15,599 nucleotides of DNA from Fibrobacteria bacterium (GCA_043732185.1 JAYTHY010000024.1:1-15599); one strand, 5' to 3'; positions 178 through 15,599 are shown, numbered from the stretch's first letter. Notes: generated by a model not told the origin, from the letters alone. Translations and numbers: made by a program.

Positions 178-250
178 GAGCTAGTAGCTCAGTTGGTAGA
201 GCAGCGCCCTTTTAAGGCGTGGGTCGTGGGTTCAAATCCCCCCTGGCTCA
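178..250 (+). tRNA. tRNA-Lys (anticodon UUU)
   Basis: Cloverleaf: acceptor GAGCTAG/CTGGCTC with discriminator A, D-arm GCTC-AGTTGGTA-GAGC, anticodon arm GCGCC-CTTTTAA-GGCGT (TTT at 211-213), T-arm GTGGG-TTCAAAT-CCCCC. Length 73 nt, CCA not encoded. Confidence 0.97.
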
Positions 251-2200: not shown

Positions 2201-3367
2201 CTACCCGTTCCGGAACTTGTACTCGTTGTAACCGAATTCCCGCACCACTTTGAGTTCTCCTTCAGCAGTCCAAATGCACAAGGAGGGCAAGGGAATCCCA
2301 TTAAAGGTCGAATTTTTTACGATGGTATAATGGATCATATCTTCAAATACCAGTTTGTCCCCGATTTTTAGGGGTTCAGTGAAACTGTAATCGCCAATGA
2401 TATCCCCAGCCAAGCAGGTGAGGCCCCCCAACCGATAGGTGTGTCCAAGCTTTCCCGGTTCATCGGCATTCCGAATTTCAGGGCGATACGGCATTTCCAA
2501 AGTGTCGGGCATGTGGGCTGTAGCAGAAGTATCCAGTATGGCTATGTCCATACCATTGCGGACAATGTCGACGACGGAGGCCACCAGCGGGCCCGTGCGC
2601 CAACCCACCGCTTCGCCCGGTTCCACATAGACTTCAGTTCCGTGCTTCTCGCGAAAGGTTTTGATAATGCGAATGAGGCGTTCCACATCATAGCCTTGCT
2701 TGGTGATGTGATGGCCACCGCCGAAATTGATCCACTTCATCTGTGGAATAAAGGCGCCGAAGCGTTGTTCGAAATGAGCTACCACCCGCTCCAAGGTATC
2801 GGAATTGTTTCCGCAATGCGCATGAAAATGCAGTCCGTCGATGCCGTCCAGCTCGTCGGGCCGAAATTCTTCCAGGGTTACGCCTAGGCGGGAATGGGTA
2901 TAGCAGGGATCATACAGTGGCGTATGCACTTCCGAATAACCAGGATTGACCCGTATCCCGCAAGAGACGTGTCGGGCAGGTACCGTACCGTGGCCTTTAC
3001 GCATGGCCATAACCTGCGGTTTGAACCGCTTCCATTGGGCAAAGGAATTGAAAACGATATGATCGGCGATGGCCAAGACTTCTGGAAATTCCCGGTCCGT
3101 GAAAGCCACGGAATAGACATGCACCTCTTTGCGCATTTCCTCTTTAGCCAGGCGGGCCTCATTCAAGGAGCTGGCGGTCGCTCCATGCAACACTTCGCGA
3201 ATCCAGGGAAAGGCGCTCCAGAAAGCAAATCCTTTGAGTGCCAGAATGATTTTGCCGCCGCTTTCCTTTTGAATCCGATCAAAGACCGCAAGGTTACCCT
3301 TAAGGAGCGACTCTTCCAGAACATAAGCCGGGGTCTGGACTAGGCTAATATCTAAAGACTTGGCCAT
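2201..3367 (-). CDS. nspC: Carboxy(nor)spermidine decarboxylase (PLP-dependent, group IV fold)
   Basis: TPAYVLEE, LALKGFA (PLP lysine), ASSLNEARLA, YDPC..SRLG, GLHFH, WINFGGGHHIT, EPGEA, HMPDTLEMPYRP, CLAGD, HYTIVK..TFNG. Start set to ATG 3367 (MAKSLD), 4 bp after the stop of the upstream dehydrogenase. Confidence 0.95.
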   Translation of the reverse strand: MAKSLDISLVQTPAYVLEESLLKGNLAVFDRIQKESGGKIILALKGFAFWSAFPWIREVLHGATASSLNEARLAKEEMRKEVHVYSVAFTDREFPEVLAIADHIVFNSFAQWKRFKPQVMAMRKGHGTVPARHVSCGIRVNPGYSEVHTPLYDPCYTHSRLGVTLEEFRPDELDGIDGLHFHAHCGNNSDTLERVVAHFEQRFGAFIPQMKWINFGGGHHITKQGYDVERLIRIIKTFREKHGTEVYVEPGEAVGWRTGPLVASVVDIVRNGMDIAILDTSATAHMPDTLEMPYRPEIRNADEPGKLGHTYRLGGLTCLAGDIIGDYSFTEPLKIGDKLVFEDMIHYTIVKNSTFNGIPLPSLCIWTAEGELKVVREFGYNEYKFRNG

Positions 3368-3371
3368 GCTT

Positions 3372-4568
3372 TCAGGTTTCGTAGGAGACGGTTTCGATCC
3401 AGGGTAGTCCGCACACCAATAGCTCGGACATGAACGGATCCGGGTCCAGGTCTTCCACATTGAATACGCCCGTGCCTTTCCACTTGCCTTGCAGCATCAG
3501 CATGGCTCCGATGAAAGCGGGCACGCCGGTGGTATAGGAAATGGCCTGATTGTCCGTTTCTTTGAAAGCTTCCTCATGGTCGCAAACATTATAAACATAA
3601 AGGCTATTGGGTTTTCCGTTCTTGACCCCTTCGATGACGCAGCCGATATTGGTCTTGCCCTTGGTGCGCGGACCTAAGCTGGCCGGGTCCGGAAGCAAGG
3701 CTTTGAGAAATTGCAATGGAATGATTTTCTGACCTTGGAAATCAACGGGATCAATCCGGGTCATGCCCACGTTTTGTAAAACGCGTAAATGAGTCAGATA
3801 ATTTTCGGAGAAGCTCATCCAGAAACGGATGCGCTGCAATCCTTTCAGGTTCTTGCTGAGGGATTCAAGCTCCTCATGGTACATCAAATAGATTTCCATG
3901 GGTCCCAGTTCAGGAGCATCAAAGGTTTTATGCACGGCCATGGGTTCGGTTTCTATCCATTGGCCCTTTTCCCAGTATTTTCCTTTGGCCGTGACTTCAC
4001 GGATGTTGATTTCCGGATTGAAATTGGTGGCGAAGGGATGGCCATGGTTTCCGGCATTGCAGTCGATGATGTCTACGGAATGGATTTCGTCGAAATGGTT
4101 TTTTTGGGCATGGGCGCAAAAGATATTGGTCACGCCCGGATCAAAGCCGCAGCCGAGCAAAGCCATGATGCCCTTTGCTTTGAACCTGTCTTGATAGGCC
4201 CATTGCCATTTGTATTCAAACTTGGCCTCGTCAGGCGGTTCATAATTGGCCGTGTCGAGATAGTCCACGCCCGTCTCCAGGCACGCGTCCATGATGGTCA
4301 AATCTTGATAGGGCAAAGCGGTGTTGATAACGAGCTTCGGTTTCACTTTTTGGATGAGCGCGACAACTTCCGCAGTGTTGTCCGCATCCACCTGGGCGGT
4401 TTCGATCGCGTACTTGCGTCGCTTTAAAATTTGATCCTTGATTCTGTCGCAACGCGCAAGCGTTCTGCTCGCCAAGACCAGGCTGGAAAAAACTTCGGGC
4501 ACTTGACTGCATTTGTGGGCAACTACGCCGCCAACCCCACCGGCACCGATGATCAGAACCTTGCTCAT
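3372..4568 (-). CDS. Carboxy(nor)spermidine synthase/dehydrogenase (saccharopine dehydrogenase family)
   Basis: Rossmann IIGAGGVG, ALPYQDLTIMDACLETGVDYLDTANYEP, GCGFDPG, FATNFNPEINIRE, YHEELESL, QAISYTTGVPA. Adjacent to nspC, with a GGAG SD upstream. Confidence 0.93.
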   Translation of the reverse strand: MSKVLIIGAGGVGGVVAHKCSQVPEVFSSLVLASRTLARCDRIKDQILKRRKYAIETAQVDADNTAEVVALIQKVKPKLVINTALPYQDLTIMDACLETGVDYLDTANYEPPDEAKFEYKWQWAYQDRFKAKGIMALLGCGFDPGVTNIFCAHAQKNHFDEIHSVDIIDCNAGNHGHPFATNFNPEINIREVTAKGKYWEKGQWIETEPMAVHKTFDAPELGPMEIYLMYHEELESLSKNLKGLQRIRFWMSFSENYLTHLRVLQNVGMTRIDPVDFQGQKIIPLQFLKALLPDPASLGPRTKGKTNIGCVIEGVKNGKPNSLYVYNVCDHEEAFKETDNQAISYTTGVPAFIGAMLMLQGKWKGTGVFNVEDLDPDPFMSELLVCGLPWIETVSYET

Positions 4569-4647: not shown

Positions 4648-4790
4648 TGCCAGATACTTTGGGCGGTTAAATTAGAATTTTTTACCGTGCCATACTGGTT
4701 CGGAAAGTGCCAAATGGGCCAGCTCAACTCAAAAAAAAGAAAGGCCGGGTCTGGCTAAAGTGTATATTTAGCCCTGAATGGGGAGGCTCC

Positions 4791-5180
4791 ATGGACAGTT
4801 GCGAAATCTTGGCCAGTAAAGAATGCGTTCCCTGTAAAGGCGGGGTTCCGGCCCTAAAAGACCCAGAGTTGAACAGCCTTTTAGCCCAATTGGGCCACGG
4901 TTGGAAAGTCATTGCCTCACATCATCTGGAAAAGGAATTCAAGTTCAAGGATTTCCTGACGGCATTGGACTGTACCAACCGCATTGGCGCCATTGCTGAA
5001 GCGCAAGGCCATCATCCTGACATTTACCTGACATGGGGAAAAGTTGGAGTTAAAATTTGGACCCATAAGATCGATGGGCTTACGGAAAGCGACTTTGTCT
5101 TGGCTGCGAAGATTGAATCAACGCACACGCACTTCCTGACCCTTAAAATTCCGCCCCTCACGACTCCCGCTGCTAACTAA
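4791..5180 (+). CDS. Pterin-4-alpha-carbinolamine dehydratase (PhhB/PCD family)
   Basis: CVPCKGG N-terminal motif, LEKEFKFKDF, AEAQGHHPDI, IWTHKIDGLTESDFVLAAKI. ATG 4791 has a GGGAGG SD at 4781-4786. The C-terminus is extended and overlaps the convergent gene. Confidence 0.93.
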   Translation: MDSCEILASKECVPCKGGVPALKDPELNSLLAQLGHGWKVIASHHLEKEFKFKDFLTALDCTNRIGAIAEAQGHHPDIYLTWGKVGVKIWTHKIDGLTESDFVLAAKIESTHTHFLTLKIPPLTTPAAN

Positions 5181-6557
5181 AGGAAAACTCGTGATAACGG
5201 TGGCTCCTTGTCTGGTCAATCCAGGACGCTTTTTGCTGCGAGAATACAGAATTTGATTGGGAAGGGCATATTCATGTGCCCCGATACTGGACGGTGAGCC
5301 AACCGGTCGAACCGTTCCCCAATAATCGGTCGAGACGCGGAAGTCCTTGGCCCCCGCTGCGATACAGGGAGAGCCCGCACGCAACTGGTAGGATGCGGCA
5401 ACCAGGCTCGCACCTCCCACAAATAAGGGATCCCGATAAAGCGAATTTGGATCCAATACGGGCAGGCTTCCTCCTGAGGAATTGTACCAGATATTGTTGC
5501 TGAAAACGGAACTGGCACCGGTTTGAGTATAGGAAAGCATAGCTCCCGATACAGACTGCACAAAAATGTTATTGCGAAACACATTGCTGCCATTGGTCGG
5601 AGACGCGTCTATGCCGATGGATAGAGCATTATTCACGAAGGTGTTATTGGCTATCAGGAACCCGACCAAGCCTCCACCATCATGCCAGAATCCGAATCCC
5701 CGACTGCAATTCACGACGATATTATTCGTGACCACTCCGTTGCGAAGATCGCCTGGCAATCCGAAATTTAGTTCCTCTGCGTTGAGAAAGCCCTGTGGCG
5801 TGCTCCGCGTCAAAGTTGGCGCAGGCCGGTTCGGGGTGCAGTACACCAGGTTGCCGTCGGCTTCAATTGCAGTGCCGTGATCGTTCCAAATATTGACGGA
5901 CCAATTGTCGTATACTTCGTTATGGAGGATATGCGCGCCCTGCGTACCGCCTGTGGTGCTATTTCCCCAAACGCCGATTCCCTCGCCATGATTGGTATGG
6001 ATGCGACAATTGCGCACGACCCAATTGCTGCCGCCGCGAATCGAGATCCCCATTCCCCATCCACTGGTAACGGATTCTGAACGGGGGAAGTTCGACCGAA
6101 CGCATTCAAAAACCTCGCAACCGATAGCCGAAGCATTAGCGCAATTGTCGAAGTTGATGCCTCGATCCCGAGCATAACTGACGCGACAATTCTCAACCGT
6201 CACGTTGTCACCGGTTACGGCAATCCCATGTTGGGAAGAATTTTTCACTTCAAAGCCTCGAAAGACTATATAACGGCCTGAAATGGATACGATGGTTCCT
6301 CCGGCGTTGCCTCCATCAATAATCGGCATTGCACCCGCAGCGGCTTCGAATACGAGAGGAGCTGTTACTGTCCCGGAGTTGGCGATGGTGAAGTGCTGTG
6401 TATAGGTGCCTGCGGACACAAGGACTCTATCGCCGGCCTTGGCCGCTGTAGCTGCGTTTTGCAGGGAACCACCGAGAGGTACAGTAATATCTGTTGCCAT
6501 GGCTTGGGCCATGAGAGTCAAAAAGAAACAAAAGTACCGGATGGTTAGCGTGAGCAT
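5118..6557 (-). CDS. Secreted right-handed parallel beta-helix repeat protein (pectate-lyase-like fold) with a choice-of-anchor-Q-like C-terminal region
   Basis: Signal peptide (AQAMA-TD), AKAGDRVLVSAGTY start motif, many G-I-x-x / V-x-N-C-x-I/V and NN-I/F-V repeats, C-terminal DPLFV..YQLRAGSPCIAAG..DYWGTVRP..IGAHEY. Substrate cannot be determined. Confidence 0.8.
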   Translation of the reverse strand: MLTLTIRYFCFFLTLMAQAMATDITVPLGGSLQNAATAAKAGDRVLVSAGTYTQHFTIANSGTVTAPLVFEAAAGAMPIIDGGNAGGTIVSISGRYIVFRGFEVKNSSQHGIAVTGDNVTVENCRVSYARDRGINFDNCANASAIGCEVFECVRSNFPRSESVTSGWGMGISIRGGSNWVVRNCRIHTNHGEGIGVWGNSTTGGTQGAHILHNEVYDNWSVNIWNDHGTAIEADGNLVYCTPNRPAPTLTRSTPQGFLNAEELNFGLPGDLRNGVVTNNIVVNCSRGFGFWHDGGGLVGFLIANNTFVNNALSIGIDASPTNGSNVFRNNIFVQSVSGAMLSYTQTGASSVFSNNIWYNSSGGSLPVLDPNSLYRDPLFVGGASLVAASYQLRAGSPCIAAGAKDFRVSTDYWGTVRPVGSPSSIGAHEYALPNQILYSRSKKRPGLTRQGATVITSFPLVSSGSREGRNFKGQEVRVR

Positions 6558-7396
6558 ATTTCAATCAACGAGAAAATTTCCTGCCGGGTTTCGAGCGTTC
6601 CCTTGGCATTGGTGGCTACTCGTTGCTCACTGTCTAATAGATCCAAAGCGCTGATTAAAATTCGTCTGGCTTCCTTTTTCTTGTGCAAGACTGTCAGGGC
6701 CTGTGCCCGTCGGAATGCCCAATCTACGCTGCGTGGCCACCAGGATTCCGCTTGCTCGGCTATTGCCAACGCCCGTTTGGTATTCGATTTATCTTTCATT
6801 GCCAAGTACGTGTCAAAGATGGCTTCGGTTGCACCAGGAGAGTGCGGGTATCGAACAAGGCCTGCATGCAAGAGTCCCTCCGGGGCCCGGCCGCTGACGC
6901 GCATACAACGCAGCAGTTCCAAATAATCCGATTCTTCATGATGGGAATTCCAACCATGTTGATACGCCGCAATGGCTGCACAAGTATCCCGATAAGCCAA
7001 ATTGATTTGGGCTAACATCCTGGACTGCTCCGGACCATCGGTGGCACTGTCGCGCATGTTTTCCTGAAGCTGCGTTTTTGCTTGCTGCATATGTCCTAGT
7101 AGGAACAGGTGATAGGCCGATAGTCGCATTCCCTGACTGTGCCAATCGGCATGGGCTAGCAGCGTGTCAATATCGGCATACACCGGATCGCCAGTCCTGC
7201 CATGATCTAGAAGCAGCCAGGCCCGATTCGCGCGTTCCACGTATGCGGAAGGCAGTACCTGAATCCGGTTTCCGATTTTTTCCAAAGTTACGGATAGGTC
7301 GGGATGGGCATGGCCAGGCTTCAAAATCAATAGAATACAGCCGAGAGTTTGGGCCACCTGGCTAGAGTGAGAGGGCCCTGCGAAGAGAAAGTTCAT
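6545..7396 (-). CDS. Putative exported TPR-like alpha-helical protein
   Basis: 283 aa ORF with an ATGA overlap upstream and a 13 bp overlap downstream. Ala/Leu-rich helical repeats (AAIAAYQ, RALAIAEQA, WAFRRAQALTVL.KKKEAR) and a weak signal peptide ending GHA-HPD. Confidence 0.62.
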   Translation of the reverse strand: MNFLFAGPSHSSQVAQTLGCILLILKPGHAHPDLSVTLEKIGNRIQVLPSAYVERANRAWLLLDHGRTGDPVYADIDTLLAHADWHSQGMRLSAYHLFLLGHMQQAKTQLQENMRDSATDGPEQSRMLAQINLAYRDTCAAIAAYQHGWNSHHEESDYLELLRCMRVSGRAPEGLLHAGLVRYPHSPGATEAIFDTYLAMKDKSNTKRALAIAEQAESWWPRSVDWAFRRAQALTVLHKKKEARRILISALDLLDSEQRVATNAKGTLETRQEIFSLIEICSR

Positions 7397-8907
7397 GGAA
7401 GTGAAATTTTCTCAAAGGCCGCACCATACCGAAAATAATATTCTCCTGGGGCAAACTTCGCCGATGACAATTCAAAAATACCCGTAGGCGTCCCAGTGAA
7501 AACGAGTTGACCTACCAGAGTGTAGAGTCGAAACGCCATTCGGTTGGCGGCAGAAAATTGAAAGCGACGGCCGTTCCGAGTGAAGGCCAACTGCGTTGGA
7601 CTCCTGGACATCGATAAAGTGGGAGTATCGGTTTGTATCATTTGAAATTGATCCTTCAGCGCTCCGGTTTTATCGTAAAACCTGCTGGTGGCCACGGAAT
7701 CTTCCACGGTGAGAATTACGGATCCAGGGACATCCAATTGCACATAATGCATGGGATGCAAACCGATTATTCCTTCCGCATGTCCGCTGCTGCCATCCAC
7801 GGTATACACCGTTCCGCGGTGTCCGGCCAACCGCGACTTCTTAATGTATGGACCTGTAGTAGTGGGGTTACCGGACTTTCCATCCAATACCACTTTTGAT
7901 TTTTTCGCCAGATTGTCCGAAGCGATTCCATACGCGCTGTCCAGCAAAAAGGACCGTTCATAATCATGACTGTGTCCACCATACACCAGGTCCACTCCGT
8001 ATTTTTCTAGCAAGGGCAGAAAGTTTTGCCGCATTTCTACATGCTCGATCTCGGTATCAGAATTATGCGATCCCCAAGTATACGGGGGATGATGAAAGAA
8101 CACGATAATCCAGGCTTGCGTCGTGGCCTGTAAATCCTGCTGCAACCACTTGTACTGCGGACCCGTAACGGAGCGGCTACTGACGATCGATGCCAAGGAA
8201 ATGAAATGGATATTTCCGTAATCAAAAGAATAATAGAGCTCTGAACCTGAGGCGATGCCCCCGGATTGTCCTGCTGTGGGGAAGTAAAAGCCATCGAGAT
8301 AAGGCGCTCCGTTTGAGGTGTAACTTTCATGATTTCCAATGCAGGACCAGGTAAACGTATTGGCCATAATGGTTGGATAGATGTTAAACATTTTATTGGT
8401 GAGTTCCTGATCCGTTCCATTGTCATAGGCATTGTCGCCCAGCATGATCAGGCCATCCGAATGAGTTCCACCATTGACCTTGATATACGCGTCCCGCACC
8501 GACCATTGATCTACGGTGTTCGTCCCAGCGTCGCCGATTATCCAAAAGGAACTTTTTTGTCTAGAGCCCAGAGTTGGATGGGTTTTAAAATAGGGGTTGG
8601 GCGTTCCCGTCAATCGGGTGGTTCCTGAGTAAACGTGGTAGAAATACTTGGTGAAAGGCTGCAATCCCTGCAGATCCGCGCAGGCATCGGTGCCAAGTGG
8701 ACTGGGGCTGCTGGTCAGCGACAAGTTGGTGGAATCCGTCCCATAATGCACGGTCAAAATTGCAGCCGTATTCGTTCTCCAACATACCGATGCAGCGGTA
8801 GGCGCGCCCTTTTGCATGAAGGGCTGACGAACAAAGGAAAGTGTTTGACACGAAACGACTGAAAGCGAAAATGCGAATAGGGCGGGAATCAAAATGCTGG
8901 GCTTCAT
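7393..8907 (-). CDS. Secreted purple-acid-phosphatase-like metallophosphoesterase (N-terminal FN3-like domain, T9SS-like C-terminal tail)
   Basis: Signal peptide, FN3-like domain (VCWRT..VHYG..LQGLQPFTKYFY), metal ligand motifs GDAG, GDNAY, GNHE, HHPPY and GHSHDYER, YYSFDYGNIHFISL, and tail LYTLVGQLV...APGEYYFR. GGAGA SD. Confidence 0.9.
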   Translation of the reverse strand: MKPSILIPALFAFSLSVVSCQTLSFVRQPFMQKGAPTAASVCWRTNTAAILTVHYGTDSTNLSLTSSPSPLGTDACADLQGLQPFTKYFYHVYSGTTRLTGTPNPYFKTHPTLGSRQKSSFWIIGDAGTNTVDQWSVRDAYIKVNGGTHSDGLIMLGDNAYDNGTDQELTNKMFNIYPTIMANTFTWSCIGNHESYTSNGAPYLDGFYFPTAGQSGGIASGSELYYSFDYGNIHFISLASIVSSRSVTGPQYKWLQQDLQATTQAWIIVFFHHPPYTWGSHNSDTEIEHVEMRQNFLPLLEKYGVDLVYGGHSHDYERSFLLDSAYGIASDNLAKKSKVVLDGKSGNPTTTGPYIKKSRLAGHRGTVYTVDGSSGHAEGIIGLHPMHYVQLDVPGSVILTVEDSVATSRFYDKTGALKDQFQMIQTDTPTLSMSRSPTQLAFTRNGRRFQFSAANRMAFRLYTLVGQLVFTGTPTGIFELSSAKFAPGEYYFRYGAAFEKISLP

Positions 8908-8957
8908 TTTGGAGTCTCCGATTCTATTCGGAATCTAGATTTATTTATTGTGGTGAA

Positions 8958-8995
8958 TTAAGGTTTCAGCACCATTTTAGGGTTTCAGCACCATT
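8958..8995. repeat. 19 bp tandem duplication (18/19 identical) of the last codons and stop of the PmoA-family gene
   Basis: TTAAGGTTTCAGCACCATT (8958-8976) is directly followed by TTAGGGTTTCAGCACCATT (8977-8995). Confidence 0.92.
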
Positions 8996-10515
8996 GAAAC
9001 AATTCGGGTCCATTGTCCCAATTCCGATTCAAACTTCAAGATGCCAATTCCACCCGACACTGGGCTTGGAAGCATGGTGGTTTGTCCGTATTGGCCCCGT
9101 GCCGTCCCCAGTTGAACTCCGTGAATGTCCACTACCGTAACGGTTCCATCGCTCATATTTTTAGGCCATTGCACTTCAATTCCATGGACCGTTGCGCGAA
9201 TCACAAACTTCGGCTCCAGCTGAAATTGCTTCGAGCTTTTAGGAAAAGCTGAGGTGGTGGCTTGAAAAGTTGCCGAAGGAGACGCTGTGAAATCCTTAAA
9301 GTAGGCTTGGGCCGAGAGAGTGTTGACCTGACCCGTGGTAATGACGAATCGGTACCGGAAAACGTAATCTTGACCGGCGAGCAGGGTCCACTTTTTTACG
9401 CTGCTGTCCACGGGGGTATAGGCCAGGAAGGGGATACCAGGCCAATTGGATGTCGCCTCTGGGAAATGATAATTTTGCGGGTGCGTCATCATGACCACGC
9501 TGGATCGATTAACGCCATTCAGTCCGGACATGACTTGCCATCTCTCCCGCGTGGGACGGGCAAGATTTCCAGACGGCGTTAAGAAAGATGCCGTAGCATC
9601 CCACGCGCGGTTGCCACGATAGCTCATGCCTTGATAGTCCCATTCAAAAAGTGTGAGCGGACTGGACCCGGCACAGCGTTGAGTGGAGGTGATATCCAGG
9701 ATCCAACTCGGTGCGGCTGTGGTTCCGCCTACAGTCGGTCCATCCACTGCAAATACCTTTACTTGCCACGTTTCGTTGAGAACCGGCTTACCGAGTGGCA
9801 AATTTGCCGCGGTCATATCGAGATGCTCATGCTCCGCTGTAAATCCTGCAAAAACCTGGCCTGCGTTGGGTGAGAGAAACTTTTTAAACCGGATGACGCC
9901 TAAAGAATCCCTTAAATCCGGCAACCAAAAATCCACCCGATGGCCTTCGAAAACAGCCTTACGCCACGGCATGAAAATTCCGTGATGCCAATAATGATCG
10001 GTTGGAAAATCACCCGTTAAGGTATCCCCCAAGGGTGAAAAAAGCGGGTGGATGTATCCGCCATCTTTGGCATAAATTGTGTCCACACCTGCGGGAGGAC
10101 GGGTATGCCCATAGTTATAGCGCAGTATAGATTTGGTTCCAACGCGCAATTCCCGGTAAGGGTAAGTGTCCTGATAGGAAAGGGACGATTTTCCAGCAAC
10201 CGTCCCCATTTCCAGGTGAAAAGATCGCGACTGACCGGCTGGCGTGGAGTCTGGCAAGATAAACCACACTCCCGGAGAGGCTGCGGAATCATATTGTGCG
10301 GCGAAGGGAGTCAGGGACTTCCCACTTATTTCCACCAAGCGCAGGGGGCCAGGATTTGCATAATTCGCAGGCAAGGGCACGCGTACGGGAACGTTCTTAT
10401 GCGCAAGCGTATCCGCCTTAACGGTTATGACACCCAACTCCTGGGCTGGAATATTCGTTAGTATACCGGCCATCAGCAGGACTGATGGATAGACCAGGAG
10501 GGATGTCAGTCGCAT
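8977..10515 (-). CDS. Secreted DUF6807 / 'PmoA-family' (PF14100-like) protein with a T9SS-like tail; not a true methane monooxygenase subunit
   Basis: Signal peptide (IPA-QE), family motif YIHPLFSPLGDTLTGDFPTDHYWHHGIFMPW, DFW, YQGMSYRG, HPQN, FRYRFVI, and tail VTVVDIHGVQL...GIGILKF. Confidence 0.75.
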   Translation of the reverse strand: MRLTSLLVYPSVLLMAGILTNIPAQELGVITVKADTLAHKNVPVRVPLPANYANPGPLRLVEISGKSLTPFAAQYDSAASPGVWFILPDSTPAGQSRSFHLEMGTVAGKSSLSYQDTYPYRELRVGTKSILRYNYGHTRPPAGVDTIYAKDGGYIHPLFSPLGDTLTGDFPTDHYWHHGIFMPWRKAVFEGHRVDFWLPDLRDSLGVIRFKKFLSPNAGQVFAGFTAEHEHLDMTAANLPLGKPVLNETWQVKVFAVDGPTVGGTTAAPSWILDITSTQRCAGSSPLTLFEWDYQGMSYRGNRAWDATASFLTPSGNLARPTRERWQVMSGLNGVNRSSVVMMTHPQNYHFPEATSNWPGIPFLAYTPVDSSVKKWTLLAGQDYVFRYRFVITTGQVNTLSAQAYFKDFTASPSATFQATTSAFPKSSKQFQLEPKFVIRATVHGIEVQWPKNMSDGTVTVVDIHGVQLGTARGQYGQTTMLPSPVSGGIGILKFESELGQWTRIVSMVLKP

Positions 10516-10527
10516 ATTATTTGGTTC

Positions 10528-12291
10528 CTAGCGCAGCAAAGTGAATCGGGAAAGTATAGGTCCCTTGGATGTTACTGTCTTTATCCAGTACATGCCTGCT
10601 TGAGTCGGAAATCCTTCCGGCATTTTTGCACCCGCCTCCAATTCGCCGGTCCAAACCCGAGTGCCGCTCATGGTATACACTTCCACCGAGTGCCGTCCGG
10701 ATTCCGTGAATAAAGGCCCGAACGCAGCATCTGCACGGGGCTGAAAATCCTTCATCGACACAATGGACGTGGAAACTTGGGTTATACACGCTCCGGAACT
10801 ATCTGCGTCCGCATAAGGATTGAACTCGGAATAGGCAGGATTTCGGCAACCCTTTACTGCAAAAGCCGATGCCACTGTAGAGCGGCAGGTGCCTTGATAT
10901 TCCAATTTGGTCAGGGTGCCAGAATAATGGGACATCACATACAAAATGCCATCGGGACTGAAGCCAAGATCCATTACGCCATTGGGAAACGTGACTCCGG
11001 GCAAGAAAGGAGCGCTGTCAATGACCTTCCCAGCTCCATCGAGAGTAAGCACGCCGAGAATGGGTTGGAAATGATTGGATATAATCCATTTTCCATGGAA
11101 ATGGGGCGGGAACTTAACAGTGGACGCAGAGGTAGGATCGTAGCGGTAAATGGGACCTGAAAGGGCTGCCATTTCTCCTCCACCGAATCCAATGATGTCA
11201 GTGGCTTGCCTTTTCAAGGTAACGTAAGTGGCCGGCGTGAGCGGCGGCAGCGTATCGATACCCGTATTGAATCTGGAATCGTTGACTGGCTTTAAAGGAT
11301 TGAACTTTGCCCCAAAAGTCGGAGTGGTGACGGTCCAATCCCTGTGCGGATACGCATAGTCTTTTCCAAAAAACATGGGCCAACCGCCGTTTCCGGGCGC
11401 TGTGAAAATTTGGAACTCGTCGCCGCCATAGCCCAATGGGCCGCCAGCATATTTATCATTATCATCCGGACCGGCTTCGGATTCCAGTACCCAACCATGA
11501 ATAGGATCGATATGCAGACTGATGGGATTGCGCATACCCATGCTGTAAATCTCAGGCCTGGTTTTGGCTTTGGTCTTGGGAAACAGATTGCCATTGGGAA
11601 TGGTGTAGGTGCCGTTTAATTCGGGATGGATGCGAAGAATTTTCCCGCGCAGATCGTTAGTATTGGCGGACGTCGCCAATGGAGCATGGTTTAAGGACAC
11701 TTCATTTGTAGCCGGATACTCGCCCCAGAACCGGTTGTCGCCGGTGGTTATATAAAGATTTCCCTGAATATCGAAGCGCAGCTTTCCGCCTGTATGGCTG
11801 CCGGCCGGGAACTGGTTAGTGGTGTCATTGGGGACTTCCAGCAAAACCTTTTCACTGGTGAGATCAATCTTTCCCGAGACAAATTTGAAGCGGGATAGAC
11901 GAAAATCTGAAAATGGATCGACGCCGGGTGGATTTGGTGTTTTCAATTTGGGCGTGTAGTAGAGATAAATCCAGGGTTCAGCAGGAAATTTTGGATCAAG
12001 GGCTATGCCCCACAGACCCATATAACCATTGGCATCCGCGCCGACGTTGGCTATTTCAACATGCGTGTTTAATGCAGGATCATAAATATTCACGGTACCG
12101 CCTTTGGCCGTATAGAATACCCGACCATCCTTGGCGACTTCCAGCTCCATCAATTCGGCCTTCCCCGTTATCAAGGGAGTCACCTTGAAATCGGTATTTT
12201 TCAAATCATCGCAACCGGGCCATTTCAATTGAGCCTGTGTCAATTGAACGGACAGGGCCGCCGTAAGTAAGTACAGGGAATTTTTCAGCAT
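10528..12291 (-). CDS. Secreted PQQ-dependent sugar dehydrogenase (glucose/sorbosone dehydrogenase beta-propeller) with a T9SS-like tail
   Basis: Signal peptide (TQA-QL), GLWGIALDPKF..WIYLYY, HTGGKLRFD..GNLYITTGDN, NTNDLRGKILRIHP, IPNGNLF, PEIYSMGMRNP, GNGGWP, DLGFSPDGILYV. Start moved to ATG 12291 because of the GAGGAG SD and signal peptide. Confidence 0.88.
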   Translation of the reverse strand: MLKNSLYLLTAALSVQLTQAQLKWPGCDDLKNTDFKVTPLITGKAELMELEVAKDGRVFYTAKGGTVNIYDPALNTHVEIANVGADANGYMGLWGIALDPKFPAEPWIYLYYTPKLKTPNPPGVDPFSDFRLSRFKFVSGKIDLTSEKVLLEVPNDTTNQFPAGSHTGGKLRFDIQGNLYITTGDNRFWGEYPATNEVSLNHAPLATSANTNDLRGKILRIHPELNGTYTIPNGNLFPKTKAKTRPEIYSMGMRNPISLHIDPIHGWVLESEAGPDDNDKYAGGPLGYGGDEFQIFTAPGNGGWPMFFGKDYAYPHRDWTVTTPTFGAKFNPLKPVNDSRFNTGIDTLPPLTPATYVTLKRQATDIIGFGGGEMAALSGPIYRYDPTSASTVKFPPHFHGKWIISNHFQPILGVLTLDGAGKVIDSAPFLPGVTFPNGVMDLGFSPDGILYVMSHYSGTLTKLEYQGTCRSTVASAFAVKGCRNPAYSEFNPYADADSSGACITQVSTSIVSMKDFQPRADAAFGPLFTESGRHSVEVYTMSGTRVWTGELEAGAKMPEGFPTQAGMYWIKTVTSKGPILSRFTLLR

Positions 12292-12323
12292 TTTTTCTCC
12301 TCGTTTAAGATTCGTTAAGAATT

Positions 12324-14054
12324 TTATTTTCCAGGACTCGTCGACCATTTAAAATCTGGTTTTTGGGATTCATACTCCCATTGAATTCGATTGGGGCTTA
12401 GGGCTGTTTGCCACACCCGCACTTCATCGATTTTACCATGGAAATAATCCTGCGAAGGCGCAGGCTTCCAGTATCTCAGCTTTTCAAATCCAATGCGCCA
12501 ATAGCCTTTGAACGCGGCTGGAGGCCGTGGTAGGGAATCCTTGGCGACAAGCTTCCCATCCACAAAAATGGACTGTCCATCGGGCGCAATTACGGAAGTC
12601 AACAAATGCCAGAGCCCGTCGTTATATTTTCCCGATGTCGAGAGTATTGCATACGCAGTGTCCGAAGGCGGAAGTGGCGGTTTATAATTTTGATACACGC
12701 CCAAGTGCAGGCTTCCAGAATCATCCATCCAAATATGTCTATCGTAATCATGACTGGTATCCATCGCTGCGCTTGAAAATCCCAGTATCCAGCCCCCTTG
12801 CTTGGAGGTCGTTTGCATCCATAGAGAATGGGTCACGAATCTGGGATTATCGAAGGCGTTTCGAGTCGTCAGATATTGGCCACCATCCAATTCCAATCCC
12901 CTTCCCCACGGAGTACTTACCGAAAGAGACGGTGTGCCCCGTAGCGTCGCCAAATTTCCGAGCGTGGATGCGTCCAGAAATTGTGGCGCGGGCCCAGCCG
13001 GGTTTTCACCCAAATGCCACACCCCTGCGTATTGAGCCGTGGCAGCAAATACGTGCGGTGCGGAAGAAATGCCCGGCGCATTGCGATTTCCCCAATACAT
13101 TTGCATGCTCGTTTGAGATTCACCTACAGGAGGAGATTTCACTTTCACCCATACCTGGGCCGTTCCAGCGGTCGAGTCCCAGAAATCGATTTCATACTCC
13201 AGCGGTTGGCCACTGGGCTGGGTAAATCTCAAATCGGCACCATCGTGCATAGCTTGGGAAAAGGCAAAACTGCCCACCGGAAGGCGTACCAGTACCGGCA
13301 GGTCAGTTGACATACCCGAGTCCCCGGATGCAGTGAGAGCGGGCGTATTCAGCAACAGCGACTGAGAATGCGCCCAAACGGCGAGGTTTTCTTCCAAAGT
13401 ATTCTCGGGAAGCGTGGTATTCCGACCGGATTGGACGGTGATATTTTCAACGGTTGCAGGCAAAACATCCGCCCGCGCCGAGGTTATATGGACGCGATAG
13501 GCTCCACTCGGTAGATCCGTAAATACAAAATGACCGGTTTCCGAATTCACCTGTACGCGCCGTTCCATTCCCGGAATCTGCACAACAGGCGGTGGCGACC
13601 CTCCAGGAACCTTCACGTTACCCTCAAGATGACCCAAGGGCAGTAAATAGGAGCGCACCAAGTCAAGCCGCTGTCCCGGAGTGTCCATCCTGCAATCCTG
13701 AATTGCCCCTGTAGCGCCCAACCCCACCTCGACCCGATACAATCCCGTATCCACTTTAGAAAGGGAAAATTTTCCCGCGCTGTCCGAATGGGTTTCCCAT
13801 TCCAGAGGTAGGCTCGCGAGCGAAGTTTGGGTTTGCAAATAATCCTTAGGGCGTAGGCGAATCAAGGCTCCCATTACCGCCTGACCGGTGGAATCCAAAG
13901 CAGTGCCGACCACCATTCCCTTCTTGGCAGGATTGCCGACTTCGGAGGAAGCCAATCGATCCTGATTGAAGCAGCCAAATAGAAAACATAGCGCAACACA
14001 TAGCGCCAAGCCAGCCACACCCATTGAAAGTTTTGAAGGGCCCGTGCGCTTCAT
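12324..14054 (-). CDS. Lipoprotein with carboxypeptidase-regulatory-like Ig domains, DUF2341 and a LamG/concanavalin-A-like domain
   Basis: Lipobox LFGC after a basic and hydrophobic N-terminus. Two beta-sandwich repeats (GTALDSTG..SDSAGKFSL..TGLYRV; SETGHFVFTDLPSGAYRV), DUF2341 motif DGADLRFT..LEYEIDFWD..AQVWVKV..MYWGN, and LamG motifs YNDGLWH..IFVDGKL..FHGKIDEVRV. Confidence 0.83.
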   Translation of the reverse strand: MKRTGPSKLSMGVAGLALCVALCFLFGCFNQDRLASSEVGNPAKKGMVVGTALDSTGQAVMGALIRLRPKDYLQTQTSLASLPLEWETHSDSAGKFSLSKVDTGLYRVEVGLGATGAIQDCRMDTPGQRLDLVRSYLLPLGHLEGNVKVPGGSPPPVVQIPGMERRVQVNSETGHFVFTDLPSGAYRVHITSARADVLPATVENITVQSGRNTTLPENTLEENLAVWAHSQSLLLNTPALTASGDSGMSTDLPVLVRLPVGSFAFSQAMHDGADLRFTQPSGQPLEYEIDFWDSTAGTAQVWVKVKSPPVGESQTSMQMYWGNRNAPGISSAPHVFAATAQYAGVWHLGENPAGPAPQFLDASTLGNLATLRGTPSLSVSTPWGRGLELDGGQYLTTRNAFDNPRFVTHSLWMQTTSKQGGWILGFSSAAMDTSHDYDRHIWMDDSGSLHLGVYQNYKPPLPPSDTAYAILSTSGKYNDGLWHLLTSVIAPDGQSIFVDGKLVAKDSLPRPPAAFKGYWRIGFEKLRYWKPAPSQDYFHGKIDEVRVWQTALSPNRIQWEYESQKPDFKWSTSPGK

Positions 14055-14908
14055 GATTTCCTATCTCCCAAGTCTTGGCTGGTTGGGAAGAATTGAAAAC
14101 TCAGGTGATACACTCGTGAGGGATTAACGCTCTTGTCGGCGATTTGCATCAACTTTTTGCGAAAGCGTTTGATTTCGGATTTGATCAAAGCAAAACTCTC
14201 GGCGGAAAGCGTCGCCACCAGGCAAGACACATCGCGCACGTCTTCCGCGCACGTGTCCATGGACTCACCAGCCAGTTTGAGGTTTTGCAAATGAAAGGCC
14301 TGCACCGATAAAGATTGTACTTCATCTCCGGTGGTGATGGAACGATCTTCTTGAACATACCCCGCTTTGGTTTTGCGGATAAGCCCCAGATTGATCAACG
14401 TCTTTACAGCCCGTCGCGCTTTTTCAGCTGTGATGGGTGGATGCAAGGCCTTGCCCAACCGCTCGAAATCTTCTTTAAAATCAAAAATGGGCAGAAGTTC
14501 CCGGATGGTGTTGTAGTACCAGTGGGAGTAAAATTCGTATTGGTTGCGCAATAATATTTTGGATTCGCTTCGGCTGTTATAATCCGTGAGCTTTACAAAA
14601 TGGTGGGCTTTTTCCCGCTGAGACTTGGCATGGTTGAATGCAACTAAGTCCTGAAAATATGAGAACGACTTTCCAGTCAAACCAATACCTTCGGCTACAG
14701 CAAAAACACCTTCCTTGGAGAGGTTTCGTTTTCCATCGATAATGTGATGGAGCAAGCTCTTGGATTTGAATCCGACCTTGCGCATGAATATTTCATAGGA
14801 AAAATGGGGCGTTTTCGCCTTGGATTCCACATAGTAGTCGTGCAGGAATTTCCTGTAGTCTAAATAGTGGAATATTGAGGTCATGAATGGAGGGCTCCGA
14901 ATTTCCAA
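14051..14908 (-). CDS. TIGR02147 family protein (N-terminal HTH-like region + DUF4423), putative transcription regulator
   Basis: IFHYLDYRKFLHDYY..K....FSY..F..KVGFKS..IIDGKRNLS, YEFYSHWYYNTIRELL, LINLGLI, FHLQNLKLA, RDVSCL, FRKKL..RVYHLSFQFFP. The TTG start at 14908 has a GGAGGT SD, and ATG 14884 is the alternative. ATGA overlap with the next gene. Confidence 0.85.
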   Translation of the reverse strand: MEIRSPPFMTSIFHYLDYRKFLHDYYVESKAKTPHFSYEIFMRKVGFKSKSLLHHIIDGKRNLSKEGVFAVAEGIGLTGKSFSYFQDLVAFNHAKSQREKAHHFVKLTDYNSRSESKILLRNQYEFYSHWYYNTIRELLPIFDFKEDFERLGKALHPPITAEKARRAVKTLINLGLIRKTKAGYVQEDRSITTGDEVQSLSVQAFHLQNLKLAGESMDTCAEDVRDVSCLVATLSAESFALIKSEIKRFRKKLMQIADKSVNPSRVYHLSFQFFPTSQDLGDRKS

Positions 14909-14943
14909 TAACCTACCTCCATTAGAAGCATTTCAGGTTACAT

Positions 14944-14973
14944 TTTATACAGAATTGTTCACATTTTGAGAAC
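14944..14973 (-). promoter_or_regulatory. Putative promoter of the TIGR02147 cassette with an overlapping imperfect palindrome (candidate operator)
   Basis: Minus strand TTCTCA (14972-14967), 17 bp spacer, TATAAA (14949-14944). The palindrome GTTCaCAtttTGaGAAC (14957-14973) covers the -35 element. Confidence 0.45.
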
Positions 14974-15108
14974 GAGAAATACCATCTTTCACCCCATGGT
15001 TTTCCCATGGGAGATATATTAGCTCTGTCGGGGAAGGACTAAAACACGTCATTATCCCCATTTTCTCAATTTTTCCCTTTTTTCCCACTTTTTCCAAAAG
15101 GAATTCCC

Positions 15109-15599
15109 ATGATTTCATCCAAATTCCCGACATGGCGCTGGGCCCTTTTGCTCGGTCTCCCGTTGCAATTTTCCGCACCGGCCTGGTCCGGCCAAGTGTT
15201 GCGCTTCCAAAAACACGTAATCGCTAACGGGGGCGATGAGGCTTGCACATTCGGGGATTTTAATGGTGACAAAAAAACCGATATAGCCTGCGGCAATTCT
15301 TGGTACCAAAATCCAACGTGGACATCACACCCCTTCCCGGGAGGGACGGATTTCTTAGCGGCAATGGATGTAGATGGAGATGGTTTGGTGGATGCCATAT
15401 CCGGTAATATCGACAATGCCAGTTGGTATCGCAATACCGGCAATGGCCTCACCTTTGCTGCGGGTAAAGATTTAGGGGTAGGCGGGCAGCACAGTGGCTC
15501 GCTATGGGATGTCGACGGGGATGGCAAAGCCAGGGAAATCGTAAGCTCCCAAAACGGCAAGCGCACCGCCTGGTCAGAAGTGGTCAACGGCAACTGGGT
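15109..15599 (+). CDS. Secreted FG-GAP/VCBS repeat protein (3'-truncated by the window edge)
   Basis: Not in the ORF track because it has no stop in the window. Manual translation: MISSKFPTWRWALLLGLPLQFSAPAWSGQVLRFQKHVIANGGDEACTFGDFNGDKKTDIACGNSWYQNP...MDVDGDGLVDAISG...WYRNTG...WDVDGDGKAREIV. It has a signal peptide, three DxxGDG-type Ca-binding loops and an AAGGA SD at 15098-15102. Confidence 0.88.
   Translation, partial: MISSKFPTWRWALLLGLPLQFSAPAWSGQVLRFQKHVIANGGDEACTFGDFNGDKKTDIACGNSWYQNPTWTSHPFPGGTDFLAAMDVDGDGLVDAISGNIDNASWYRNTGNGLTFAAGKDLGVGGQHSGSLWDVDGDGKAREIVSSQNGKRTAWSEVVNGNW

Follow-up and report, generated by a model that had tools for sequence, protein, structure and literature searches.

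Our analysis of a 15,599-nucleotide stretch of DNA (the window) from the genome of an uncultured freshwater Fibrobacteria bacterium revealed that two adjacent genes, encoding a TIGR02147 protein (G1) and a lectin-head lipoprotein (G2), constitute one instance of a two-gene head module that recurs across the phylum, and this is the firmest part of the result. The pair opens a run of seven minus-strand genes (G1 to G7) at positions 5118-14884 (Table 1). We consider it probable that the locus joins this phylum-wide module to a lineage-specific tail of exported proteins and that it is regulated by G1.

Table 1. Features of the window, with positions counted from its first nucleotide
Feature	Position	Longest ORF	Strand	Basis or remark
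G1, TIGR02147/DUF4423 protein, 277 aa	14051..14884	14051-14908	-	family profiles, conserved start
G2, lectin-head lipoprotein	12324..14054	12324-14054	-	family profiles, lipobox, structure model
G3, GSDH-family beta-propeller with putative T9SS-type C-terminal domain	10528..12291	10528-12348	-	profile, PDB relatives
G4, exported DUF6807 protein with marginal T9SS-type tail	8977..10515	8977-10515	-	DUF6807, 159 bits
G5, purple-acid-phosphatase-like metallophosphoesterase	7393..8907	7393-8907	-	Metallophos, 55.4 bits
G6, TPR-like protein, 283 aa	6545..7396	6545-7396	-	sub-threshold TPR_19, 20.1 against 25
G7, secreted right-handed beta-helix protein	5118..6557	5118-6557	-	Beta_helix, 61 bits, and choice-of-anchor Q domain
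Divergent intergenic region, G1 to FG-GAP gene, 224 bp	14885..15108		.	presumed promoter region
Perfect inverted repeat CCCATGG-5-CCATGGG	14993..15011		-	127 nt upstream of G1 start
Divergent FG-GAP repeat gene	15109..15599		+	cut by contig end

The TIGR02147 family had been described in the first-pass annotation as expanded in the phylum and of unassigned function, and our counts agree: the genome holds 24 matches, 23 of them full-length, and the family occurs in 189 of 201 sampled genomes of the phylum (58 of 61 genera) and in 20 of 21 relatives at 4-70 copies each, while none was found in 14 control genomes. When the genes downstream of the paralogs were tabulated, a lipoprotein-like gene lay directly after the TIGR02147 gene in all 23 full-length copies of the genome and in 27 of 27 evaluable loci of relatives, two of which come from the unpublished genome G011 (two further loci, cut by the locus end, were left out). 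Our crude in-house gene caller covered 22 of the 23 full-length paralogs and placed a co-oriented gene directly downstream of every one of them, with an overlap of -4 in 14 of the 22. A lipobox followed by the short motif was found in 13 of 3534 predicted proteins by a pattern defined post hoc, with the partners already known; 11 of these are encoded directly behind TIGR02147 genes and one is the second lipoprotein of a cassette. The short post-cysteine motif, [ST]E[TV]GN, is nearly private to TIGR02147 partners, and among DUF2341 proteins without the lipobox, motif and sandwich front, none adjoining a TIGR02147 gene was found. The two members also diversify together, as their similarity matrices are correlated (Mantel r 0.38, p about 0.0005) and 11 of 22 pairs have the same nearest paralog for both. 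G1 is a full-length member of the TIGR02147 ("Fsuc_second")/DUF4423 (PF14394) family, which is multi-copy across the phylum; unlike the pairs seen here, the family definition includes no obligatory lipoprotein partner and no motif. Within the literature searched, we found no study of the pair, so that the locus can still be called undescribed, and the one paper found on TIGR02147 or DUF4423 only lists a DUF4423 protein of Bdellovibrio among its proteome data.

G1 matches the TIGR02147 profile at 275.4 bits (cut-off 50) over model positions 1-271 of 272 and the DUF4423 profile at 127.8 bits (cut-off 30). The 5′ limit of 14973 previously given for the cassette lies outside the open frame: the longest ORF of G1 begins at TTG 14908, and paralogs and orthologs alike share the start at ATG 14884. 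By a simple in-house rule, the product has no signal peptide. In its structure model (pLDDT 88.1), residues 8-91 resemble the XRE/HigA class (Z 8-8.8; 3pxp_A Z 8.8, HigA Z 8.0-8.4), including DdrO and other XRE repressors, and residues 103-190 resemble ArsR/MarR-like winged helices (Z 7-8.2; CmtR Z 8.2), similarities that are middling (Z 7-9) and tell the fold class and not the function. The whole chain gave zero Foldseek matches at E <= 0.001, its sequence profile had no significant match among solved chains (best E 0.15; lambda CI E 0.43, HigA 0.66), and no Pfam HTH family was found at E <= 0.01. On the model, G1 is predicted to be, much as first read, a cytoplasmic protein with an XRE-type HTH and a winged-helix domain, both of DNA-binding classes. 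It shares these fold classes with XRE/HigA-type and ArsR/MarR repressors, although no solved protein pairs both domains as G1 does.

The second gene had been called a lectin-domain lipoprotein, and its families (CarboxypepD_reg, DUF2341 and Laminin_G_3) and LFGC lipobox bear this out. All 16 sequences of an alignment have the lipobox cysteine, Cys28, and the order of LFGC, SSEVGNP and CarboxypepD_reg agrees with a lipobox, an [ST]E[TVA]GN-type motif and a transthyretin-like domain. From the N-terminus, the protein comprises the lipobox Cys and a disordered tether in which SEVGNP lies, followed by a pair of transthyretin-like sandwiches and then by DUF2341 with the LamG lectin head. The structure model has a pLDDT of 82.1, with residues 23-42, the tether, below 50, and its head is lectin-like, resembling AbnA domain 4 (5hon_A) at a TM of 0.74 on the target.

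Recomputed from the ORF coordinates, the six junctions of the seven minus-strand genes are -4, 32, 12, 69, -4 and -13, as had been listed; five of the six are <=32 nt and three are overlaps. The start of G2 lies over the stop of G1 (ATGA), and the second junction is 32 with the G3 start at ATG 12291 and -25 with ATG 12348. ATG 12291 corresponds to Met20 of the ORF and is compatible with a signal peptide. The 69-nt gap between G4 and G5 could leave room for a promoter. A family search of the seven genes found no transporter, two-component or sigma-factor family, in keeping with the earlier reading. The complete gene order is kept in the related genome G008, and the order from G1 to G5 in G002 as far as the contig end. 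The exact set of seven is confined to two near-identical species with protein identities of 87-100%, so similar that their shared order cannot be taken as a sign of selection.

The families assigned to G3 to G7 in the first-pass annotation (PQQ sugar dehydrogenase, DUF6807, metallophosphoesterase, TPR-like and beta-helix) were recovered, as GSDH, DUF6807, Metallophos, a sub-threshold TPR_19 and Beta_helix, respectively. Its claim of signal peptides on all five fared unevenly under our crude in-house rule: G3, G4 and G7 pass, G5 has a lipoprotein-like N-terminus (VVSC), and G6 passes from an internal alternative start only. G3 matches GSDH (Pfam) at 110 bits over 229 of 332 model positions and has the PDB relatives 2ism (2ism_A E 1.3e-16), 3a9g and 1c9u, with sGDH matched at E about 7e-8; it is probably a soluble aldose dehydrogenase-like propeller. 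The 51 bits that G3 scores with TIGR03606 fall far short of the cut-off, 434. For a GSDH-type enzyme, we take oxidation at C1, not C3, to be the expectation. TIGR04183 scored 17.9 bits on G3 against a cut-off of 23 and was not found in G4 to G7. An in-genome C-terminal tail family of 72 proteins, which includes 32 of the 44 TIGR04183-positive proteins of the genome, contains G3 at 51.4 bits; its profile matched G4 marginally (E 0.0019), gave E 0.12 on G5, and had no match in G6 or G7. SprA is present in the genome.

G4 is the sole DUF6807 protein of the genome, with the family occurring in 4 of 21 relatives, and no relative of it was found among solved structures. G5 resembles plant purple acid phosphatases (E 3.6e-19, 6git_A) and contains GDAG, GDNAY, GNHE, FFHH and GHSH, which we take to be the five purple acid phosphatase metal-ligand motifs. 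With its Metallophos domain, these motifs and an N-terminal fibronectin-like domain (Pur_ac_phosph_N) slightly below threshold at 28.6 against 30, G5 fits that class. In a protein atlas, G6 falls among TPR clusters at 0.96-0.97, which is a lead only. The 3′ end of G7 runs 63 nt into a convergent gene for a pterin dehydratase. The G7 ortholog is split in G008, where G1 to G6 are intact. Homologs of G5 stand alone in G018 and G019, one of them near phosphate-transport genes, and homologs of G5 and G7 lie on separate contigs in G011. The split G7, the rarity of DUF6807 and the placement of G5 and G7 homologs elsewhere speak against reading head and tail as one unit.

The divergent intergenic region upstream of G1 is 97% identical in two orthologous loci. 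Perfect repeats with arms of at least 7 nt, such as the one in Table 1, precede 9 of 23 paralogs, compared with 16% of the 1320 upstream regions that served as background (p about 0.007). This modest enrichment would make CCCATGG-5-CCATGGG a tentative candidate operator. In the G002 ortholog, the left arm carries two changes that break the repeat, which speaks against that role. Promoter and terminator scans of the locus performed no better than on shuffled sequence. The divergent FG-GAP gene resembles the FG-GAP gene carried as cargo by C31, a different TIGR02147 cassette (E 8.9e-57), and is possibly an associate of the locus.

The expectation that secreted cargo recurs behind the pair was borne out in its enrichment and not in its uniformity. 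T9SS-type tails are found in 5 of 32 cargo genes, compared with 72 of 3056 genes genome-wide (odds ratio 8.2, p 7.7e-4), and a strict in-house signal-peptide rule selects 14 of 32 cargo genes compared with 664 of 3371 (19.7%). The cargo is heterogeneous, with fucosidases, dehydrogenases and DUF1080 and GH-like proteins among it, and is sometimes absent or of housekeeping type. By the in-house gene call, nothing co-directional follows the lipoprotein in 8 of 22 own cassettes, counting C127, where the caller missed a DUF1080 gene; in one other case, an argininosuccinate lyase and an aminotransferase lie downstream. The head domains of the partner lipoproteins vary as well (lectin-, Kelch-, ThuA- and chitobiase-type). 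Fucosidases occur with ThuA-fused heads, and ThuA-domain lipoproteins head two other cassettes of the genome. In the DUF2341-LamG subfamily, to which G2 belongs, GSDH/DUF7133 and DUF1080 genes recur as cargo: 5 of 16 DUF2341 sites in the genome lie <=5 kb from a GSDH or DUF1080 gene, where 6.5% would be expected. Among 10 selected G2-like cassettes of other genomes, a GSDH or DUF7133 gene follows in three, with DUF1080 in all three, a Gfo/Idh/MocA oxidoreductase occurs in one and an SGL lactonase in one. The recurrence of GSDH/DUF7133 propellers with DUF1080 proteins suggests extracytoplasmic oxidative sugar processing in this subfamily.

Such variable cargo, together with the cassettes that have none by the in-house call and the one trailed by the lyase and aminotransferase, is what would be seen if G1 and G2 alone were functional and G3 to G7 were exported-protein genes that are co-directional by chance, each transcribed from a promoter of its own and not controlled jointly. 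The unrelated contexts of G5 and G7 homologs elsewhere, the rarity of DUF6807 in the clade, the gap ahead of G5 and the broken G7 beside intact G1 to G6 fit the same explanation. We nevertheless judge it unlikely, given the tight and partly overlapping junctions, the excess of T9SS tails and exported proteins behind the pair, and the way in which the type of cargo goes with the lipoprotein subfamily: GSDH/DUF7133 plus DUF1080 accompany DUF2341-LamG heads, and fucosidases accompany ThuA-fused ones.

The pairs might instead form a variable repertoire of surface lipoproteins with their own regulators, which would help the cell to vary its surface, to adhere or to escape phages and grazers and not to use a substrate, with the enzymes incidental. 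This would agree with tens of copies per genome and with regulators far more conserved than lipoproteins (normalised scores 0.3-0.5 and 0.05-0.25, respectively). It has a parallel in Bacteroides surface-polysaccharide operons, where, in the available part of the source (PMC11685472), each capsule operon likewise starts with its own regulator paralog (UpxY/UpxZ). As far as that part of the source extends, those regulators differ from G1 in being NusG-like, of unrelated families, and in targeting capsule synthesis and not exported lipoproteins (PMC11685472). No cross-inhibition partner was seen at our locus. The lectin-, Kelch-, ThuA- and chitobiase-type heads and the fucosidase, DUF1080, GH-like and dehydrogenase cargo fit substrate handling, and we regard a mere surface repertoire as improbable. 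Direct action of a TIGR02147 protein that is no transcription factor on its partner, such as binding to the precursor of the lipoprotein or to its mRNA, would account for translational coupling (the -4 start/stop overlaps), for a conserved and almost private motif beside the signal peptide and for the co-diversification of the pair, but it seems very improbable to us, as both folded domains of the G1 model are of DNA-binding classes, a mature lipoprotein is not in the compartment of a cytoplasmic protein, and ordinary operons often have overlapping starts.

The locus, read as a regulated exported-protein unit, resembles Bacteroidota polysaccharide utilization loci (PULs) in its local regulator-type gene, lipid-anchored lectin-head protein and exported enzymes on one strand, and in the many paralogous loci per genome. 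It differs in having no transporter, in cargo of which much is not glycoside hydrolase, and in the XRE plus winged-helix architecture of G1 in place of SusR, hybrid two-component or ECF/anti-sigma regulators. PULs also have SusC/SusD, and the claim that our locus has none extends to the whole genome, across which SusD_RagB gave zero matches and TIGR04056 reached at most 25.8 bits, over 45-97 N-terminal model positions only. The description as a PUL-like unit is supported in part, by the recurrent head pair and the export-enriched cargo, and less well for the tail, as cargo varies and the seven-gene set is found in two species only.

A second likeness is to the 3-keto-glycoside ("non-Koshland") operons such as BT2156-BT2160. 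According to the available parts of two reports, DUF1080 proteins act on 3-keto-glycosides (PMC8121099; bioRxiv 10.1101/2024.03.25.586180). Within the same limits of these sources, sister cassettes of the G2 subfamily share with such operons DUF1080 proteins, a Tat-type Gfo/Idh/MocA enzyme or exported propellers of dehydrogenase type, and the ThuA-domain lipoproteins of the two other cassettes count as a further likeness. In contrast to the operons as described there, the window has no DUF1080, Gfo/Idh/MocA or isomerase-like lyase gene, and its dehydrogenase is GSDH-type. The locus may be linked to this pathway by association only.

If the locus is a head module with an exported-protein tail, G1 would bind DNA within the 224-bp region upstream of its own gene and act as a locus-specific regulator of the transcript that starts there, which would amount to autoregulation. 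G2 would serve as a glycan-binding component of the envelope, possibly at the surface. G3 to G7, presumably carried on the same transcript as G1 and G2, would provide the extracytoplasmic activities of an aldose-dehydrogenase-like propeller, a DUF6807 protein, a purple-acid-type phosphatase, a TPR-like protein and a beta-helix protein.

The genome to which the window belongs (4.46 Mb, 139 contigs, 49% G+C; the window is one whole contig, C24, of 15,599 bases) contains 24 TIGR02147 matches above the cut-off, 23 full-length copies and one fragment. Genes were called with a crude codon-score caller made for this analysis (3534 genes). All 22 of the 22 paralogs seen by the caller have a co-oriented gene directly 3′ of them, with a 4-base overlap in 14, and the 23rd full-length copy is followed, after a gap of 1, by a lipoprotein-like gene. 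Of 29 loci taken from 19 further genomes in that class, two are cut by the locus end and 27 have a co-oriented open reading frame (ORF) that begins −41 to +4 from the regulator stop (two of these 27 belong to G011, an unpublished genome). The partner N termini consist of a hydrophobic stretch with a terminal cysteine, a short Gly/Ser/Thr-rich piece with an [ST]E[TVA]GN-type motif, and a transthyretin-like (CarboxypepD_reg) domain. In the relatives, a regular expression flagged the lipobox cysteine in 19 of the 27 partners, and the remaining 8 were judged by eye from a cysteine closing the hydrophobic stretch. A combined lipobox and motif pattern, composed after the partners had been seen, matched 13 of the 3534 predicted proteins, 11 of them encoded directly 3′ of a TIGR02147 gene and one representing a second lipoprotein within a cassette. 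None of the similar-sized DUF2341 proteins devoid of lipobox, motif and sandwich front adjoins TIGR02147. The tabulation of genes downstream of each TIGR02147 paralog, proposed in the first-pass annotation, hence revealed a lipoprotein partner that recurs at the 23 full-length own copies and at the 27 loci elsewhere.

TIGR02147 was detected in 20 of 21 relatives at 4 to 70 matches per genome, the exception being a 1.6-Mb genome, and in 189 of 201 genomes (58 of 61 genera) drawn evenly from the phylum, compared with 0 of 14 control genomes. Across the 22 own pairs, regulator and lipoprotein similarities correlated (Mantel r of 0.38, p of about 0.0005) and both members had the same nearest paralog in 11; hence, the two genes duplicate and diverge jointly, the regulator being conserved far better than its lipoprotein. 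Collectively, these results make the regulator-lipoprotein head a robust module that spans the phylum. The single fragment (G000:C46:20291-20608, where G000 is the genome of the window) is a truncated TIGR02147 gene spanning model positions 3-108, and the next gene encodes a protein of 437 aa that shows no lipoprotein signature; on these grounds, it is probably a remnant.

Within the window, the ORF listing placed seven ORFs on the minus strand in the range 5118 to 14908 (G1 to G7 in order along that strand, G1 being the TIGR02147 gene and G2 the lipoprotein gene). The first-pass annotation had described seven co-oriented genes, and the ORF coordinates reproduced its junctions of −4, 32, 12, 69, −4 and −13 from G1 to G7, the second being −25 if an earlier ATG is used. 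Its upper coordinate, 14973, was too high, as the G1 start conserved in paralogs and orthologs is the ATG at 14884. Neither a transporter nor a two-component system or sigma factor occurs among the Pfam/NCBIfam families of the seven genes, as had been claimed.

Features of the window, with the Pfam/NCBIfam families of the seven cassette genes
Feature	Position	Strand	Content	Basis
tRNA	178-250			Rfam
Carboxynorspermidine synthase and decarboxylase genes	2201-4568		adjacent genes	
Pterin-4a-carbinolamine dehydratase gene	4707-5180	plus		
Overlap of G7 and dehydratase genes	5118-5180			
G7	5118 (end)	minus	Beta_helix + choice-of-anchor Q domain	Pfam/NCBIfam
G6		minus	weak TPR match, nothing else	Pfam/NCBIfam
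G5		minus	Metallophos; purple-acid-phosphatase N-domain just below cut-off	Pfam/NCBIfam
Tandem duplication at G4/G5 spacer	8936-8995	minus		
G4		minus	DUF6807	Pfam/NCBIfam
G3		minus	GSDH	Pfam/NCBIfam
G2		minus	CarboxypepD_reg + DUF2341 + Laminin_G_3	Pfam/NCBIfam
G1		minus	TIGR02147 (275 bits) + DUF4423	Pfam/NCBIfam
Inverted repeat	14993-15011			
FG-GAP gene, truncated at contig end	15109-15599		divergent from cassette	

The flanking genes are unrelated housekeeping genes for a pterin dehydratase, carboxynorspermidine synthase and decarboxylase, a RIO1-like kinase, an aldo-keto reductase and a tRNA, the last being the sole Rfam match in the window. Because the 3′ ends of the convergent G7 and dehydratase genes overlap by 63 bases, there is no space for a terminator between them. 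The longest ORFs of the carboxynorspermidine genes share 89 bases, and the true nspC start probably lies further inside its longest ORF. At the G4/G5 spacer, the final 19 bases of G4, including the stop codon, are repeated in tandem right after the stop (AATGGTGCTGAAACC[C/T]TAA, twice, with a single change), representing a small duplication. The divergent FG-GAP gene on the other side of the cassette has a close paralog (E value of 8.9e-57) among the cargo of a different TIGR02147 cassette (FG-GAP gene, G000:C31:6047-8626). Three of three orthologous contigs terminate within this gene, which suggests that it is a repeat that disrupts assembly. Four DNA sequencing runs from four studies yielded short contigs 85-99% alike, with depth in 30, 27, 24 and 30 of 30 bins, indicating only the presence of relatives of the window in those samples and having no bearing on expression. 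Among sequencing runs containing the window, a search listed none on record as RNA.

The first-pass annotation viewed all seven genes as one PUL-like unit. The tight junctions speak for the tail, G3 to G7, belonging to the unit, as does the fact that cargo type tracks the type of lipoprotein head. In the own genome, the cargo comprises alpha-L-fucosidases behind ThuA-fused lipoproteins (two cassettes), a BNR protein behind Kelch lipoproteins, and FG-GAP, DUF1080, SGL lactonase, or S8 and LRR proteins behind DUF2341-LamG lipoproteins. When genes behind the lipoprotein of own cassettes were counted (gaps of at most 160 nt), the enrichment of exported proteins that was to be checked was indeed observed: a T9SS-type tail, i.e., a C-terminal sorting-type domain, is present in 5 of 32 such genes versus 72 of 3056 genome-wide (odds ratio of 8.2, p of 7.7e-4), and a strict signal-peptide rule was passed by 14 of 32 versus 664 of 3371. 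In 8 of 22 own cassettes the caller placed no co-directional gene behind the lipoprotein (one of the 8, on contig C127, is a caller miss), and one own cassette has argininosuccinate lyase and aminotransferase genes behind the pair. G5 homologs in two relatives, G018 and G019, stand alone, one of them near phosphate-transport genes, and in G011 the G5 and G7 homologs are on separate contigs. In sum, the head pair is robust and exported cargo is enriched behind it, but the cargo varies and the exact seven-gene order is limited to two near relatives (G002 and G008, protein identity of 87-100%). It is plausible but unproven that G3 to G7 are passengers of the head-pair unit.

Two own cassettes (G000:C114:28259-34692 and G000:C71:16539-26592) represent a recent duplication, with lipoprotein copies 83% identical, and consist of TIGR02147, a ThuA-domain lipoprotein and then either a single alpha-L-fucosidase or three of them, carrying F5/8 type C domains. 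Another (G000:C136:38194-42674) encodes three exported proteins and, last, an ECF-type sigma factor (Sigma70_r2/r4).

Ten G2-like cassettes were selected from the top matches in other genomes, excluding G011, giant proteins and one contig-end case. A TIGR02147 gene lies upstream in all ten; a GSDH or DUF7133 propeller together with DUF1080 lies downstream in three, a Tat-type Gfo/Idh/MocA oxidoreductase in one and an SGL lactonase in one. The own cassette on C127 has GSDH before the pair and DUF1080 after it, and 5 of 16 own DUF2341 sites are at most 5 kb from a GSDH or DUF1080 gene (6.5% expected). According to two reports, the substrates of DUF1080 proteins are 3-keto-glycosides, within an oxidative pathway that cleaves glycosides (PMC8121099; bioRxiv 10.1101/2024.03.25.586180). 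At one own site that is not part of a TIGR02147 cassette (G000:C112:116402-119797), a G3-like GSDH propeller gene precedes a small ORF and then a DUF2341 gene whose product bears an ordinary signal peptide; the GSDH-DUF2341 link is therefore independent of the regulator. What the window itself contributes is the tie between the DUF2341-LamG head subfamily and dehydrogenase-type cargo.

Among the tail proteins, G3 has its relatives in the soluble aldose dehydrogenases (2ism_A, E value of 1.3e-16). Its C terminus falls into an own-genome family of 72 C termini that contains 32 of the 44 proteins positive for TIGR04183, the database model of the T9SS-type tail; G3 itself scored 17.9 against this model, below the cut-off of 23. 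The T9SS component SprA is encoded in the genome. G4 is the sole DUF6807 protein of the genome, and 4 of 21 relatives have this family. A genome-collection search with G4 returned two near-identical MAG contigs alone, and the best protein atlas score, 0.82, is a lead only. Neither G4 nor G7 matched solved structures by sequence at an E value of 0.1 or below. G5 is similar to purple acid phosphatases of the plant type (E value of 3.6e-19) and, as read by eye, retains the five metal motifs. A G5 homolog of 46% identity (L091, a locus in G018:C284, 7807-15712) lies a few kb from a cluster that is pstSCAB-phoU-like as read from N termini alone, which gives a hint that G5-type enzymes may serve phosphate scavenging. 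In G008, a species 90-98% identical to that of the window, the G7 ortholog is broken into ORFs of 99 and 285 aa in different frames (L078, G008:C152, 9234-10402) and G1 to G6 are intact; this split may reflect decay or an assembly error.

A G1 model built from 38 family sequences (pLDDT of 88.1) gave no whole-chain Foldseek match at an E value of 0.001 or below. In a wide structural search, residues 8-91 resembled an XRE/HigA/DdrO-type helix-turn-helix (Z of 8.0-8.8) and residues 103-190 an ArsR/MarR-type winged helix (Z of 7-8.2), middling values that indicate the fold class alone. The G1 sequence profile found no relative among solved structures (best E value of 0.15). A toxin-antitoxin system, prompted by the HigA-like fold, was considered and rejected, as the partner is an exported lipoprotein of 230-670 aa. 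The G2 model (pLDDT of 82.1) is disordered from the signal peptide to residue 42, a stretch that includes the motif, and continues with two beta-sandwiches, DUF2341 and a lectin-type jelly roll whose best domain-level match is carbohydrate-binding domain 4 of the AbnA arabinanase (5hon_A, TM of 0.74 on the target). The predicted complex of G1 with the mature G2 N terminus (residues 28-140; score of 0.01, mark of 0.32) carries no weight either way.

Of 23 paralogs, 9 have a perfect inverted repeat with arms of at least 7 in the 160 nt preceding them, no two alike, compared with 16% of 1320 background upstream regions (p of about 0.007). The repeat of the window is broken in G002 by two changes. 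These repeats give a weak hint of paralog-specific operators upstream of TIGR02147 genes, the window's repeat being a weak candidate. A scan for promoter-like (17 versus 12.3 in shuffles) and terminator-like (14 versus 12.7) sites was uninformative, as the counts are close to those of shuffled sequence.

The claim that the locus does without SusC/SusD extends to the whole genome, which contains no SusD, and no SusC above its cut-off; the locus thus falls outside the definition of a Bacteroidota PUL, which has these proteins, despite a similar logic. To our knowledge, Fibrobacter and its relatives do not have the SusC/SusD systems of Bacteroidota. The locus had also been called a candidate undescribed one, and neither the family nor the pair was the subject of any study found in our literature search on TIGR02147/DUF4423 (Fsuc_second), DUF2341, DUF6807 and the regulators and lipoproteins of Fibrobacter; a Bdellovibrio DUF4423 protein appears in the proteome table of one paper. 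The S85 genome report notes few recognisable regulators near cellulase genes (PMC3079729).

It is conceivable, though we consider it unlikely, that the pairs are the Fibrobacterota counterpart of PUL sensor-regulator heads, each of the tens of paralogous pairs in a genome being tuned to one extracellular substrate, with the conserved tether motif of the lipoprotein forming part of the route that relays substrate capture at the envelope to the cytoplasmic regulator; the DUF2341-LamG subfamily, including the window, would then control a surface-tethered, oxidative cleavage of sugars, carried out by dehydrogenase-type propellers exported through the T9SS, rather than classical hydrolysis. The control and organisation of fibre degradation in Fibrobacter and its relatives is an acknowledged gap. 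With its presence in 189 of the 201 genomes drawn from the phylum, a scored copy number of up to about 70 per genome and a lipoprotein partner in every case, the regulator-type family TIGR02147 is a strong candidate for this missing layer of local control, which is directly testable in the cultivable F. succinogenes. To this the window adds a case in which the exported tail is long, and a link of one lipoprotein subfamily to dehydrogenase/DUF1080-type cargo, which hints at extracellular oxidative sugar processing.
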